The notes under the pieces are model-generated. The model did not search any database and had not been told where the DNA came from. It saw nothing but the letters and a program-made list of their open reading frames with translations. The translations under genes and the position numbers were made by a program. Positions 1,319-21,214 of a DNA stretch of 54,512 bases are shown here, piece by piece (position 1 is the stretch's first letter; every line of letters starts with the position of its first letter). The stretch comes from a virus (Duplodnaviria > Heunggongvirae > Uroviricota > Caudoviricetes): the IMG/VR virus record IMGVR_UViG_2529293142_000033. One strand, 5' to 3'.

Positions 1319-1855
1319 ATGATGCTTACCCTGGACGAGATAGGTCAATCAGTACGTAACAATATCCAGTTGATTATTGATCATGTCGGCTTACCTCTTG
1401 CTGTTGGTCCGCTCAGTGATGATGATTACAAGATTCTGTGTGGTGGCTATGGTGAGCTTGAATGGGACTATGCGTTAAGTACCTATGGCAACTCCAGAGA
1501 AAAGTATGAGTTCTGCATAAAACTTGTTCAGCAAGGTCGGGTTCAGGGAATACCATCAGGAGCAGCAATTTGTGTTTATGGGGTTGAAGAAAACATCTTT
1601 CGTATCCATATGATCGAAAGGTTTTCTAGAGAAGATGAATCTCACCCATTGAAAGGGCGCATGGTTTTACTCACTCTTATGAGTGCTTTTATATTTTGTA
1701 AAGCTGTTGAATGTAAAGTTGTCCACATTGTAGAGCCAGTACCAGAACTGGTGCAGTATTACGAGTCTTTTGGTTTCCGCATGGAACAGTGCGGTTATGT
1801 GATGTCGGCAGTCATTGATGAGCTGCAGGATATCTTTCTTAAATTTGCTCAGTAG
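1319..1855 (+). CDS. hypothetical protein, possible GNAT-fold acetyltransferase-like (att-proximal cargo)
   Basis: 178-aa ORF; C-terminal segment (FRIHMIERF..VVHIVEP..LVQYYESFGF) resembles GNAT beta4-alpha3-beta5-alpha4 pattern without canonical QxxGxG; putative -10 tataat about 30 nt upstream. Confidence 0.5.
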   Translation: MMLTLDEIGQSVRNNIQLIIDHVGLPLAVGPLSDDDYKILCGGYGELEWDYALSTYGNSREKYEFCIKLVQQGRVQGIPSGAAICVYGVEENIFRIHMIERFSREDESHPLKGRMVLLTLMSAFIFCKAVECKVVHIVEPVPELVQYYESFGFRMEQCGYVMSAVIDELQDIFLKFAQ

Positions 1856-2051
1856 GTATAGACGAGAAGGGTCTACAAATTGTAGGATACCCGTCCAGAT
1901 TACCTTAAAGGTACATCTATGGCAGTCGTTTTGTGCTTAAACTACTAAGAAACGATGTCACCAATCGACATGATCGATTGGCATAAGTTAGCGAAACAAG
2001 CTAGCTTTAAAGAAAGGGTTAGAGACGCCTTTACTGTCTCGGGAGTTTTCT

Positions 2052-2225
2052 ATGAAAGATCAAAAAGCAACCAAGCCACAGGTTAAGTTCGACACAATGA
2101 AAGCATTCGCAGGTATGGGTGCTGCTGTTGAAGTTCTGATGAAGGCTGCTCCTAATGCGTTCACTCACGCTACTGTCTCTGGTAAAGAGCAGCAGGGTAA
2201 GCTTCGTCGTCGCAAAGCAGCATGA
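2052..2225 (+). CDS. small hypothetical protein (57 aa), Ala/Lys-rich
   Basis: ATG preceded by gggag RBS; followed immediately by strong terminator; below the 60-aa ORF-track cutoff. Confidence 0.4.
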   Translation: MKDQKATKPQVKFDTMKAFAGMGAAVEVLMKAAPNAFTHATVSGKEQQGKLRRRKAA

Positions 2226-2244
2226 TCATAGCTGGTGCTTTTTG

Positions 2245-2272
2245 AAAACCCGCCTTCAGGCGGGTTTTTTCT
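2245..2272. terminator. bidirectional rho-independent terminator
   Basis: aacccgcc ttca ggcgggtt hairpin with T-run on plus strand and partial U-run on minus strand; sits between convergent genes. Confidence 0.7.
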
Positions 2273-2581
2273 TTAGTGATGTTCTTTGCCCTTCTGTTTG
2301 ACTGTTCTGACCTGTTCCCACTCGATACGTCCTTCTTCTCGTCTTTTGTCTATGTATTCCGCAAGATCCTGAATATTGATGCAACGTTTTGCTTTTTGTG
2401 ATGTGCCGATGCGATATGTTGGAATGGGCAACTTACAAGCGTTTGCTTTTGCTTCTGCCGTGGCTGGACTCATACCAAAGTACTTTTGGCTAACTGCTGA
2501 GAGTTCAATGTTTGGGGTATTGAATTCAGCCATCAGTAAAAACAAGGTGTTCATAATTTTCTCCATCAAAACCGGCTGCAC
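2273..2581 (-). CDS. PrtN-like / excisionase-like small DNA-binding regulator
   Basis: 102-aa protein with KYFG..PATAE..LPIPTYRIG..IQDLAEYID pattern typical of pyocin-activator PrtN family. Confidence 0.65.
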   Translation of the reverse strand: MQPVLMEKIMNTLFLLMAEFNTPNIELSAVSQKYFGMSPATAEAKANACKLPIPTYRIGTSQKAKRCINIQDLAEYIDKRREEGRIEWEQVRTVKQKGKEHH

Positions 2582-18118: not shown

Positions 18119-18307
18119 GGCACACAGCAGCGCAATAGTCACTGTTAGTTTGTTCCCGGGAGGGATAAATGAAAATTAATTCATGTTTTTTTCATGAAAA
18201 AGGTTTTTTTGTGGCGTGCGATCGCCAGGATGACTTCTTCCTCAGTTTCGGGCCTGATATTGGCGTGGGGCGTTTCTCATTCATTCGCCCCGCGCGGGAG
18301 CATGGCG

Positions 18308-18802
18308 TTACCGCAGGGCTTTTTCAATTAACGGAAGTGCTGCCGGAATGTTCATTACCCCCTGAGTCAGTAATTGCAGGGTCAAATGTTTTATGGCGTC
18401 TGACGGAAGCTCTCGAAGTTTTGAAATCAGTCCCTTCTTCTGATCTTCAGGAATATTGGCAATCCGGATTATGTCCTCTATAGCAGTCAGGGTGCTGTGA
18501 TGAAATTTTATGGTCTGAACTTTCAGTATGGCGCTCAGACCACCATCATTTCGCAGAAAATCAATGCCATTGATTGTGATTGCTGGCATCCAGACATGGC
18601 TGTATCCGCATGAGTCAAGTCGTAATCCACTGGTTATAAGACCATGACCTTCCAGATATAAAAGATTAGCAATCGCTGTTTTGTTGTCAGGGAATACCGA
18701 TAACAGGCGCTTTAACTGCTCATTGTTTCTTATTTTGTCGGGGAATATGTCGTTGAGAGACGATAAGAACTCGAGTTGCGTTTGACGATCGAACTTGTCC
18801 AT
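18308..18802 (-). CDS. hypothetical protein, reverse-oriented orphan gene
   Basis: 164-aa ORF on minus strand inside a plus-strand late region; no family recognised. Confidence 0.5.
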   Translation of the reverse strand: MDKFDRQTQLEFLSSLNDIFPDKIRNNEQLKRLLSVFPDNKTAIANLLYLEGHGLITSGLRLDSCGYSHVWMPAITINGIDFLRNDGGLSAILKVQTIKFHHSTLTAIEDIIRIANIPEDQKKGLISKLRELPSDAIKHLTLQLLTQGVMNIPAALPLIEKALR

Positions 18803-18940
18803 GATGAGCGCTTGCTTTTGATAGTGTTAATTCATGAAGTTTAACTCCGCCAAAGTTATTTATTCAACCGCCCTTCAGGGCGGGCAGAAGCCTTCACATC
18901 GACACTGAGGTCGCCATCCGGCGGCCTTTTTTGTACCCGA

Positions 18941-19513
18941 ATGAAAACCTTCATCTGTACTGCCAGCGGTCCTTCGCTGTCTGCTGAGGACTGCCGGTTT
19001 ATTGCGGACTGCGGTCTGCCTGTCATCGCCGTTAACAGCACCTGGAAACGGGTTCCTTTTGCCACGCACGTGTTTGCCTGTGACTTCTCCTGGTGGAAGG
19101 CCTGCGTCCGTCACATCACCATTCCGGCTCAGCGCTGGACTGACAGCCGGGCTGCTCACAAGCGCTTCGGCATTAACTTCTTTCCTGAAGAGCGCGGCTC
19201 TCCGGTTAACTCCGGCAGACGGGCCATTGAGTTTGCGCTCTGGCTGGGCGCGGAGCGGGTGATTCTGCTGGGATATGACTGCTCCGTCTCACGCGGAACA
19301 CACTGGCACGGTGACCATCCGGAGGGGCTTAAGAACCCGACGGAGAACAGCACGCGTCTGTGGCGGAGCGAATTTGAAAAACACGCGCCCGTACTGAATG
19401 CACGGGCGGAAATCATCAACTGTTCGGTGGAAACAGCCCTGACCTGCTTTCCCCGGAGACGGCTCAGGGAGGTTCTTGATGCCACTGTCAAAAAGTCGCC
19501 CCGTGTATGTTAA
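18941..19513 (+). CDS. hypothetical protein (190 aa), translationally coupled to downstream glycosyltransferase-like gene
   Basis: ORF overlaps next gene by 38 nt; contains a GAERVILLGYDCS Rossmann-like strand; no confident family. Confidence 0.5.
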   Translation: MKTFICTASGPSLSAEDCRFIADCGLPVIAVNSTWKRVPFATHVFACDFSWWKACVRHITIPAQRWTDSRAAHKRFGINFFPEERGSPVNSGRRAIEFALWLGAERVILLGYDCSVSRGTHWHGDHPEGLKNPTENSTRLWRSEFEKHAPVLNARAEIINCSVETALTCFPRRRLREVLDATVKKSPRVC

Positions 19514-20411
19514 GGGAATGCACGGGATTGGCGACAACATTAACCAGCGAATGTTCATTGATGCGCTTTCGCGTGCCGGATACAGGGTGGAGCTACAGAC
19601 ACCCCTGCCGCAGCTTTACGCGGACCTGCCGGGGGTGACCTTCATTCCCTCGGAGACCACCCTGCGTACCCAGCAGAAAAATGAGCAGCGGGCCTACAGG
19701 AGCCTGCCGTACATCGCCCGCCCCTCAGCGGATGCACAGCGTATCCGCATCATGCATGACCGGCAGACGAAGGGGCGGGGGGAAAGCGTCGTTATGACAA
19801 TGACACGACAGTTCGGGATTGCGCCAGCTCCGGCGTCTCTTCCGTCGTTCAGGCGTTCATCACTGGTGGTGACCGACAAACCGGTGGCGGTGATTCGTCC
19901 GACAACGGTGCGTAATGAGTGGAAGACCACCTCCCGTGGACCGCTGAATGAGTACATCGACATGGCCTCGCGGATGCTCGCTGCGCGCGGCTATCACTGT
20001 GTGAGTGTGGCAGACCTTAACGAGTCTGATGCCTGCGAAAAGCGTCGCGAATGGATTGACGGCATGGTGCCGTTTGCGCATCAGCGATTTCATCACGGTG
20101 AGCTGTCACTTGAAGAGCTGCTGTCACTGACTGAGAGCGCGGCTGTGGTGGTCTGCGGGGACTGTCTGCTGCTGCACGCAGCGATAGCGTACGGTACCCC
20201 GCTGCTGGCCATTCTTGGTGGCATGGGCGGTGCCTGTCGTCCTGAGATTATTGCTGACCCGTCCCACTATGACCTGTCGAAGGTGTGCTTCATTAAGCCG
20301 GACAATTTCTGTCTGTGTCATGAGATGACGCACGACTGCGACAAGCACATCAGCGGAGTGGAAGGCAAAATCGCGGCGTTTCTGGATGGCCCCGTATTCA
20401 GGGGAGGCTGA
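19476..20411 (+). CDS. putative GT-B glycosyltransferase, family 9 (heptosyltransferase)-like
   Basis: N-terminal RPVYVKGMHGIGDNI and C-terminal VVVCGDCLLLHAAIAYGTPLLAILGG resemble the two signature segments of ADP-heptose:LPS heptosyltransferases (by eye). Confidence 0.5.
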   Translation: MMPLSKSRPVYVKGMHGIGDNINQRMFIDALSRAGYRVELQTPLPQLYADLPGVTFIPSETTLRTQQKNEQRAYRSLPYIARPSADAQRIRIMHDRQTKGRGESVVMTMTRQFGIAPAPASLPSFRRSSLVVTDKPVAVIRPTTVRNEWKTTSRGPLNEYIDMASRMLAARGYHCVSVADLNESDACEKRREWIDGMVPFAHQRFHHGELSLEELLSLTESAAVVVCGDCLLLHAAIAYGTPLLAILGGMGGACRPEIIADPSHYDLSKVCFIKPDNFCLCHEMTHDCDKHISGVEGKIAAFLDGPVFRGG

Positions 20412-20412
20412 T

Positions 20413-20733
20413 ATGCCTGACAAATCACCGGGATTCTGGATGTCCCTGCTGGCCTGGTTCCGGGCGGAGCCGGATGTGTCTGTTGCTGCTGCAACCGGGC
20501 TGATGGCCCTGCTGCGTTCCTGTCAGCAGGGAAAGTCACTGAGGGCGATGTTGCTGGACTCATGCATCTGCGCCTTTCTGGCGTTTTATCTGCGTGATGC
20601 GCTGGGGCTGTGCGGTGTGGACCAGGACTGGGCCATGATTCTGGGCGTGGTGCTGGGGTATCTGGGGACAGAGTTCATCCGCACCCTGCTGATTCGCTGG
20701 GCGGAGCGTCGCGCCGGGATTACCCGACACTGA
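20413..20733 (+). CDS. holin
   Basis: 106-aa protein with two to three TM segments and charged C-terminus, ggggagg RBS, directly upstream of endolysin. Confidence 0.7.
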   Translation: MPDKSPGFWMSLLAWFRAEPDVSVAAATGLMALLRSCQQGKSLRAMLLDSCICAFLAFYLRDALGLCGVDQDWAMILGVVLGYLGTEFIRTLLIRWAERRAGITRH

Positions 20734-20746
20734 AGGAGTTCTCATT

Positions 20747-21214
20747 ATGAACAAAAATGTGAAGGCCTTTCTGGATGCGCTGGCGTGGACAGAAGGCACC
20801 AGTACCAGCCGTTACACGAAAAATGACGGTTACGACATCATCGTTGACGGCATCGACTCGCCGCACACCTTCACGGACTACAGCACACATCCGGCTGTTC
20901 TGGTCACGGTTAACCGTCGCGGGCTGAAATCCACGGCGGCAGGGCGTTACCAGCTGCTGTCCCGTTACTGGCCGCATTACCGCGACCTGCTGAAACTGCC
21001 GGACTTCTCGCCGGCCTCACAGGATGCGGTGGCCGTGCAGATGATAAAGGAGCAGGGGGCATATGCGGATGTGGTGGCGGGGCGTACTGAGATTGCCGTG
21101 CAGAAGTGCCGGAACATCTGGGCCAGCCTGCCGGGGGCCGGATACGGTCAGCGTGAGGTGACGATGGCGATGTTCGTGGCGCAGTACCGGCGCTGTGGCG
21201 GGGTGACGGCATGA
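20747..21214 (+). CDS. endolysin, lambda R-like lytic transglycosylase
   Basis: KAFLDALAWTEGT..GRYQLLSRYW..FSPASQDAVAVQMIKEQGA..IWASLPGAGYGQ aligns closely with lambda R as recalled. Confidence 0.9.
   Translation: MNKNVKAFLDALAWTEGTSTSRYTKNDGYDIIVDGIDSPHTFTDYSTHPAVLVTVNRRGLKSTAAGRYQLLSRYWPHYRDLLKLPDFSPASQDAVAVQMIKEQGAYADVVAGRTEIAVQKCRNIWASLPGAGYGQREVTMAMFVAQYRRCGGVTA

Follow-up and report, generated by a model that had tools for sequence, protein, structure and literature searches.

Evidence for a convergent pair of overlapping protein genes in prophages of Proteobacteria

The lysogenic cargo of temperate phages has been described under the moron concept (HK97/lambda) and includes rexAB, downstream of cI in lambda, and prophages of Bacillus carry type I toxin-antitoxin pairs whose 3' ends overlap, txpA/RatA and bsrG/SR4. 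Long antiparallel overlaps with conserved proteins on both strands are very seldom met with in bacteria or phages, and most of them are disputed. In Pseudomonas phage Fc02 the antisense-overlapping genes olg1 and gene 10 lie in the lysis-lysogeny region, one in the lysogenic transcript and the other in an operon that is switched on after induction, and either protein, when expressed, gave superinfection exclusion (PMC9936078). Fc02 is the closest described case, functional and not homologous, to the locus analysed here, a minus-strand open reading frame (ORF) of 164 amino acids (aa), hereafter the target, in a stretch of 54,512 nucleotides (nt) from a virus of the Caudoviricetes (IMG/VR record IMGVR_UViG_2529293142_000033), the whole of which is called the window.

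The ORF listing of the window places the target at 18308-18802. An earlier note, made from the sequence, had presented it as an orphan and self-contained single gene; instead it was found to be half of a conserved convergent pair, in which a plus-strand ORF at 18169-18483, hereafter the partner, overlaps its 3' end by 176 nt. We hold with high confidence that the two genes form a mobile prophage cassette, with a partner of ~90-104 aa and with ~135 of the shared nucleotides doubly coding. As in Fc02, these are opposite-strand protein genes of temperate phages with one gene for each programme, which is judged here from position.

The target family and its antisense partner

The target was matched over its full length by PHROG 3983 (E=2.1e-52, residues 1-164 on profile positions 1-164 of 165), a family of unknown function. 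The earlier statement that no family could be recognised thus stands for Pfam (searched up to E=1), NCBIfam and PADLOC, which gave no match, and falls for PHROGs. A word-indexed search returned 189 homologues down to E=1e-30, and an exhaustive search gave 1051 clusters at 50% identity, nearly all of 155-175 aa, which makes a chance ORF untenable. More than 1000 sequence clusters of this family stand without annotation, the source annotation being 'hypothetical' except for one UniRef entry and one phage record that say 'transcriptional regulator'. Homology to a phage morphogenesis protein or loss of the ORF in relatives, either of which the earlier note had counted against its own proposal, was not found; the ORF is intact in hundreds of relatives.

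The family is nearly confined to prophages of Proteobacteria. Members were found in more than 548 IMG/VR contigs and in genomes of Enterobacterales, Acinetobacter, Haemophilus, Psychrobacter, Lysobacter, Asaia, Sutterella, Noviherbaspirillum and Desulfovibrionaceae, and in only 15 records of isolated phages (tblastn, 50,697 phage records); they are very rare on plasmids. The cassette of the window itself occurred in 3 of 5426 complete genomes of E. coli; strain 2015C-4136CT1 (NZ_CP027550) has it at 3879792-3880631. Copies of a related Rha gene (~86% identical) in E. coli sit in another, Stx-type context without the cassette, and an empty insertion site sought in this species was not found, the related Rha genes being in that context. 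In Halomonas phage vB_HboP_4908 (locus L135 of our set, 1763-2311, minus strand) the record annotates the opposite strand, with a 182-aa ORF that spans the whole family gene and is probably a strand mis-call.

Past the stop codon of the target, ~140 nt are conserved in almost every context, and read on the plus strand they begin the partner ORF. Partner residues 1-46 lie outside the target and residues 47-104 (58 codons) are antisense to its 3' end; conservation extends over residues 1 to ~91, beyond which the sequence varies. A total of 120 homologous loci were compared, with ORFs called and neighbours clustered. By a strict motif an intact partner homologue was present in 89 of them (94-137 aa, overlap 152-218 nt), and manual inspection added the partner in Providencia, Photorhabdus, Xenorhabdus, Haemophilus, Acinetobacter and Noviherbaspirillum. 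It was also present in phages P54 (Pseudomonas), AbIPP1, Abau_Attikon1, PhiR49_2 and GF-2; the relative frame was computed for four of these and was identical, and it is constant from Enterobacterales to Acinetobacter and Pseudomonas wherever computed. The partner is unannotated in every annotated genome or phage record examined and was found just 35 times among 5.8 billion predicted proteins, a conserved phage gene that standard gene callers systematically miss; in P2-like contigs the gene finder had called both genes, with an overlap of 125 nt. Small ORFs downstream on the target's own strand (clusters c49 and c85) were considered as a co-directional partner and rejected as wrong-strand artefacts, codon position 1 being their most variable.

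Coding periodicity was evident in partner residues 1-46, where pairwise variability was 0.33-0.47 at codon position 1 (P1), 0.22-0.37 at position 2 (P2) and 0.58-0.64 at position 3 (P3). Third-position variability of the target fell from 0.65 (0.61-0.67 over residues 1-120, including the highly conserved residues 76-105) to 0.24 over residues 121-164, and the fraction of identical codons among identical residues rose from 0.37-0.38 outside the overlap to 0.69 within it. Target codon position 3 falls on partner position 2. The last ~13 codons of the partner showed a target-only coding pattern (P2 0.57), and the functional end of the partner is therefore placed near residue 91.

Synonymous resampling of target residues 108-164 gave 5.9 expected stops in the partner frame and a probability of an open frame of 0.0024 per sequence; the frame was fully open in 42 of 67 distinct sequences, as against 0 of 67 for a control region (target residues 48-104, same relative frame). 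The constraint was absent from eight relatives without the partner (third-position variability 0.71, same-codon fraction 0.38) and was kept in 25 partner-bearing relatives, distant taxa included, in pairs below 60% identity (0.41 and 0.63). As a consequence of the doubly coding constraint, nucleotide matches to distant relatives are confined to the overlap; with megablast, GF-2 and E. coli GDSC2BY4G matched only at window positions 18305-18478. Comparative support for the overlap is strong, with a constraint that is limited to the overlap and is gone without the partner, and with a pair that is kept from Enterobacterales to Acinetobacter, Pseudomonas, Haemophilus and beta-proteobacteria.

These results bear on the simplest alternative, that the target is a single accessory gene, the plus-strand ORF a chance antisense frame and the low synonymous divergence the trace of a shared 3' segment that recombined recently. 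Long antisense ORFs often arise by chance, neither PGAP nor the phage annotators called the partner, and the rarity of partner proteins in the database points the same way. However, the N-terminal half of the partner has diverged in nucleotides (P3 ~0.6) with its protein conserved, the reverse of recent transfer; the openness of the frame is significant; the constraint follows the presence of the partner; and the relative frame is the same in Enterobacterales, Acinetobacter and Pseudomonas, with the ORF found in Noviherbaspirillum as well. A single gene is strongly disfavoured by this evidence and is barely conceivable.

Flanking signals and genomic contexts

The features of the locus are collected in Table 1.

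Table 1. Coordinates of the cassette, its signals and the neighbouring genes in the window
Feature	Position	Strand	Remarks
Target, 164-aa ORF	18308-18802	-	ORF listing
Partner ORF, 104 aa	18169-18483	+	converges on the target; ORF listing
Shine-Dalgarno sequence GGGAGGG	18158-18164	+	4 nt ahead of the partner ATG; read from the sequence
Antiparallel ORF overlap, 176 nt	18308-18483	both	18308 to ~18442 (target residues 121-164) doubly constrained
Terminator T1, stem 18088-18109 and T run	18084-18115	+	-20.6 kcal/mol, z=-4.4; ends the Rha gene; 53 nt before the partner ATG
Terminator T2, stem 18907-18928 and T run	18903-18934	+	-17.2 kcal/mol, z=-3.2; between the promoter region of the target and the late gene ATG at 18941
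GC-rich hairpin GCGTGGGGCG / CGCCCCGCGC	18263-18295		just 3' of the target stop; inverted repeat
Hairpin CCGCCCT-TC-AGGGCGG	18868-18883		-13.3 kcal/mol, z=-2.4; abuts the candidate -35
Candidate promoter of the target	18838-18867	-	TTGAAT (18867-18862), 18-nt spacer, TAAACT (18843-18838); weak, 8/12
Q-type antiterminator	14975-15727	rightward	among the surrounding genes
tRNA cluster, four genes	16114-16420	+	past Q, ahead of the late genes; annotated as Ile, Arg, Thr and Gly in a near-identical E. coli record
Second 164-aa ORF	16750-17244	+	past the tRNA cluster, downstream of Q
Rha-family antirepressor-type gene	17502-18089	rightward	PF09669, E=1e-30; left neighbour of the target
190-aa gene and GT9-like glycosyltransferase gene	18941-20411	+	right neighbours; followed by holin and lysozyme

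Cassette and conserved flanking non-coding sequence were found together in at least five distinct insertion contexts, and the partner points in the late direction in all contexts. In enterobacterial prophages the flanking genes on both sides usually run opposite to the target, with few exceptions, and the contexts are mutually unrelated. Slots in the late region were seen at Q/lysis genes, at a GT2 gene/200-aa gene (without family) upstream of HNH and terminase genes, at HNH/small terminase subunit, and beside tape-measure genes. A forward terminator ends 16-25 nt before the partner ATG in lambdoid contexts, and where it lies behind Q it may be tR' itself; with a terminator just ahead, the partner would therefore be transcribed only by read-through or antiterminated polymerase.

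In other contexts the target runs in the same direction as the immunity genes. Acinetobacter phage AbIPP1 has the order cI, small ORF, target, and Haemophilus has cI, two small genes, target, in the same convergent layout with the partner as P2-like contigs. The latter carry cI, DUF7424, Excalibur-like and HEPN-like genes followed by the target, convergent with sheath...gpU-gpD-partner, and the partner starts 2 nt past the stop of the last tail gene, gpD. In Edwardsiella phage GF-2 the target homologue is directly downstream of an Arc/Mnt-like repressor gene and divergent from arc-ant, in a layout like that of P22 immI, and in Pseudomonas phage P54 it adjoins a C2-type repressor gene. Since the target either opposes a late operon or ends a cI/mnt-like operon, canonical sites of lysogen-expressed genes, it is probably made in the lysogen. 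Judged from position, the two genes are likely to belong to opposite programmes, the target to the lysogen and the partner to lytic or late expression.

Further observations were made on the genes that accompany the family. The HEPN-like gene of the P2-like metagenome contigs (L136-L138, 4652-5257, minus strand; PF18867, weak in 2 of 3) lies directly upstream of the target with a 1-nt overlap and may be further lysogen-expressed, defence-type cargo. Klebsiella phage ST13-OXA48phi12.5 (L133, 3001-4485) has a partner-less, C-terminally divergent variant of 157 aa, which converges on a 135-aa gene and on one annotated as DUF4065-domain-containing, DUF4065 being the Panacea antitoxin domain. Antirepressor genes of three families, namely Rha, ORF6N-like (a label that is our own reading) and Ant/KilAC-like (annotated in GF-2), were found beside the target in several contexts. 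A tie to glycosyltransferases or antirepressors was considered and set aside, as it holds in some contexts only and is taken as co-location in hot spots for the insertion of accessory genes.

The earlier note had placed hairpins on both sides of the target, at 18879-18897 and 18912-18935. Both lie to its right, upstream of the minus-strand gene, where the real stems are those of the hairpin next to the candidate promoter and of T2; the element on the left is T1. T1 and T2 are sequence paralogues: the arrangement CACTGAGGTC-N10-GGCCTTTTTTGT occurs twice in the window versus 0 expected, and the flanks are identical while the stems differ by compensating changes (TGCTACGGCA versus GCCATCCGGC), a likeness that points to a duplication, or to recombination at a terminator during the gain of the cassette. 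Among 59 unique contexts, 22 had a T1-like forward terminator in the 120 nt ahead of the partner (16-80 nt before its ATG) and 25 had a T2-like one. We infer that T2-like terminators would keep transcription started in the cassette out of the downstream late genes.

The two flanking terminators are clear and face the late direction, and the promoter candidates are weak. In place of the candidate in Table 1, of which a GTTAA(A/T) element aligns with the upstream regions of relatives, a promoter scan marked TTAACA-18-CATCAT (18830-18801), which would overlap the target ATG. A CTG-N9-CAG inverted repeat (N16 in L094), usually within TATCAGGATGTT, was found ~75-89 nt upstream of the target ATG in one group of relatives (13 of 72; loci L003, L036, L041, L071, L085, L094 and L114). 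It was rejected as a LexA box: the spacing is a base too short for the SOS box (CTG-N10-CAG), and the window lacks the repeat.

The GC-rich hairpin just past the target stop is made of partner codons for G-V/W-G-R/K and I-R-P. Its GGGGCG...CGCCCC form is kept in nearly all contexts (loci L006, L036 and L058, for example), and besides coding it could mark the 3' end of the target mRNA or direct its processing. No clean terminator was found after the target stop, the first good same-strand hairpin past the GC stem being the reverse of T1, so that the target mRNA probably runs in antisense through the entire partner gene.

This arrangement invites a reading at the RNA level only, by which the collision of convergent transcription would itself be the commitment switch and the frames would be passengers, or just one of them functional. 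In P2-like contigs and Haemophilus the overlap lies exactly where the cI operon meets the late tail operon, and a conserved GC hairpin marks the junction. Both frames, however, show constraint of the protein type, in the periodicity of the partner and in the invariant polar residues and confident fold of the target; the last beta strand of the partner is encoded in the overlap and is modelled with high local confidence; and an RNA element alone would not hold a frame of 45-60 codons open. With these points in view we consider a purely RNA-level interlock very improbable.

In the window all annotated neighbours of the target run rightward (Q, the transfer RNA genes (tRNAs), the ORF at 16750-17244, Rha, the 190-aa gene, GT9, holin and lysozyme), as the earlier note had said of the region, and its flanking genes were correctly named as well, with Rha (PF09669) on the left and the 190-aa gene and GT9-like gene on the right. 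From T1 to T2 the guanine-cytosine (GC) content is 45%, lower than in the window as a whole (52.5%) and in the neighbouring glycosyltransferase genes (59%). An Rfam scan of 15500-21000 returned the four tRNAs only and no match in the cassette. The second 164-aa ORF, past the tRNA cluster, is without a Pfam family, has a hydrophobic N-terminal stretch resembling a membrane segment and is kept in all three of the E. coli genomes with this region; its slot downstream of Q is where Stx phages carry stx. The 190-aa protein has a weak MptE-like match (E=2e-4, below threshold), and its gene shares 38 nt with the GT9-like gene; the pair (59% GC) stands directly behind T2 and is apparently expressed with the late operon only. 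The palindrome TTCATGAA occurs in 6 copies in the window versus 1.4 expected, two of which flank the target (18191-18198 and 18831-18838), and no conservation of these palindromes was found in relatives.

The two proteins and their possible action

The anatomy of the cassette is well supported by internal controls and its mechanism is speculative. An AlphaFold2 model of the target had a predicted local distance difference test score (pLDDT) of 85.7 and consists of a winged helix-turn-helix at ~5-70 followed by helices at 77-83, 88-114, 119-131, 134-151 and 155-163. The helical domain (76-164) carries in the window the motifs GIDFxRDDGGLSAIL and LRELPxDAIKHL, and conservation in the family is highest at T-x-K-G-x-D-F-L-x-D-D-G-G-L-S-A-I-L (76-93) and L-R-x-L-P-A-x-A-x-K-H-L (129-140). 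The least conserved parts (0.1-0.2) are the recognition helix (helix 3), at its start and on its surface, and the wing, where insertions and deletions occur. The mean net charge in the family is -2.8 for the winged-helix domain and -2.5 for recognition helix and wing, which contain 2.3 Lys/Arg on average. The grand average of hydropathy (GRAVY) of the target protein is -0.04 and it has no hydrophobic stretches. Foldseek gave no whole-protein structural match (E >= 0.03, template modelling score (TM) <= 0.35), the match being limited to ~61 residues of the winged helix; a match to the B domain of protein A in a search of PDB sequence profiles was repeat-inflated and was taken as chance.

The winged helix raises the possibility that the target is a dimeric factor of MarR/PadR type, which would repress its own promoter and/or a neighbour, with the partner as an anti-repressor or incidental. 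The label 'transcriptional regulator' in two records, the antirepressor genes of three families that adjoin in several contexts and the CTG-N9-CAG repeats upstream of the target in some relatives all agree with such a role. Yet only the ~61-residue winged helix is matched, and its recognition helix and wing are acidic and variable, with insertions and deletions; the neighbours are wholly different between contexts, so that there is no common target gene; the upstream repeat is lacking in the window and in most groups; and T2 separates the shared intergenic region from the glycosyltransferase genes, which could not be driven from there. Because the DNA-facing helix and wing are the least conserved parts and acidic on average, the modelled protein is unlikely to be a classical DNA-binding repressor, and regulation by a factor of this type appears quite improbable as an account of the cassette.

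For the partner, no similarity was found in Pfam, PHROGs, PADLOC or PDB sequence profiles. Five partner variants searched against PADLOC-DB 2.0 gave a single isolated weak match (PDC-M06B, E=0.0037), and the target and four relatives gave none there. The partner is soluble and acidic (isoelectric point (pI) 4.8, GRAVY 0.11), without hydrophobic stretches. Its AlphaFold2 model from 36 sequences (pLDDT 76) has five beta strands over residues 3-58 with a pLDDT of ~90, the last of them encoded within the overlap at the same level of confidence, then a flexible stretch after residue 58 and two short helices within 78-98.

As a working model, the target would be transcribed in the lysogen, apparently from its own promoter or as the last gene of a cI/mnt-like operon, and the partner would be made only during lytic, antiterminated transcription. 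The transcripts would be fully complementary over the overlap, the minus-strand one probably spanning the partner to T1, and expression would therefore be mutually exclusive, strong transcription of one gene suppressing the other in an either/or fashion. The target protein would be cytoplasmic, probably not DNA-binding, and would benefit the lysogen, as in superinfection exclusion or defence, by using its acidic winged-helix scaffold and its highly conserved helical domain in protein contacts with a conserved component of host or phage. The partner would be a late antagonist that lifts this block once the resident phage goes lytic. Since partner-less target subfamilies exist, the primary effector is taken to be the target, with the partner modulating it. 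The pair stands at the meeting point of the lysogenic and lytic programmes, which makes for a testable model of expression in dormancy and cancellation on induction.

The roles proposed here for the two proteins, a target acting for the lysogen and a late-expressed partner as its antagonist, are possible and on the unlikely side. More specific still, and distinctly doubtful, is the proposal that the pair is a widespread prophage 'interlock' with a lysogen exclusion or defence protein and its own late antidote on opposite strands; if true, the resident phage would disarm the block on going lytic and invaders could not, a self/non-self solution and a deeply conserved antisense double-coding arrangement, both hitherto undescribed. 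The earlier note had thought of immunity, exclusion or toxin-antitoxin functions. The general notion of an accessory gene with expression of its own in the lysogen is backed by comparative context; a PADLOC match, a toxin or antitoxin family and a supporting paper were not found.

The same arrangement could be read the other way round, as a toxin-antidote pair in which the partner is a harmful late protein (host shut-off or lysis aid) and the target its antidote in the lysogen, built of an N-terminal winged helix and a C-terminal neutralising domain. The target mRNA, through its long 3' untranslated region, would serve as antisense RNA against leaky partner mRNA, as in the type I pairs of Bacillus prophages. 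The 3' ends converge and overlap, and the minus-strand transcript would span the partner with its ribosome-binding site; the partner is directly behind terminators and silent unless antiterminated; and its model has five beta strands and then C-terminal helices in ~100 aa, an order of secondary structure that we take to be compatible with small barrel toxins of CcdB/MazF type, the domain order of the target being like that of many antitoxins. Against these stand target relatives without the partner, which itself cannot exist without the 3' end of the target. Moreover, the partner matches no toxin family in Pfam or PADLOC and is a soluble, acidic protein rather than a small hydrophobic peptide, the winged helix looks ill-suited to operator binding, and the genes do not form a co-directional operon, unlike type II systems. 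We judge a toxin-antidote pair decidedly unlikely.

Taken as a whole, a cassette with genes in opposite programmes, a lysogen factor and its late antagonist, is the best explanation at hand, and it is offered tentatively, at somewhat less than an even chance. Several points weigh against it. Profile searches found for neither protein a similarity to known defence, exclusion, toxin or antitoxin proteins, and a literature search found no paper on the target family. The sequence pairs in the substitution tests are phylogenetically non-independent, which the within-gene contrast and the partner-less control lessen and do not remove. The window's own target protein is near neutral (pI 7.9), unlike the family mean, which makes the charge argument a statistical one. 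T1 and T2 are each absent from more than half of the contexts and so are not obligatory parts of the module, and in the window copy the promoter is weak by consensus and the Shine-Dalgarno sequence of the target is poor.

Comparison with known systems

The cassette does not fit the definitions of MarR/PadR regulators, type I or type II toxin-antitoxin systems or known defence systems. With MarR/PadR proteins the target shares the winged helix-turn-helix fold; unlike them, it and 52 relatives gave no match to these Pfam families, and the parts that would contact DNA are acidic and variable. Weak matches to YjcQ (PF09639) and DUF2513 (PF10711) came from 7 and 4 of 52 relatives, with best E values of 0.013 and 8e-4. 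Among viral structures the best match of the target was annotated YjcQ, and the pattern 'winged helix then T-x-x-G-x-(D/E)-F-L' looks similar. However, all of these matches were far below gathering scores, the window protein gave none, and the target family has an additional helical domain of ~90 residues.

Type I toxin-antitoxin pairs of Bacillus prophages are likewise convergent units with complementary 3' ends, established here at the DNA level only, from which RNA-RNA interference would be expected. Those pairs combine a non-coding RNA with a toxin that is a small hydrophobic peptide, whereas the present pair consists of two conserved soluble proteins with a doubly coding overlap. Type II systems differ in that the window genes are convergent and without toxin or antitoxin matches in Pfam.

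Like a moron, the cassette is an insert of deviating GC content, reversed among late genes or placed at the end of a cI operon, bracketed in the window by terminators that both face the late direction, present in some relatives only and found at different insertion sites. Classical morons are single transcription units, whereas the cassette adds a second gene, which belongs to the surrounding late operon and overlaps the first.

The pair of Fc02 has no sequence relation to that of the window, and tblastn of the target against the 50,697 phage records did not return Fc02. Olg1 is a protein of 7.9 kDa, and the Fc02 genes lie beside the repressor gene and ner, without a tail-to-tail overlap of 3' ends. 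The Fc02 pair is limited to B3-like phages, whereas the pair described here occurs in phages of many types, from two classes of Proteobacteria.

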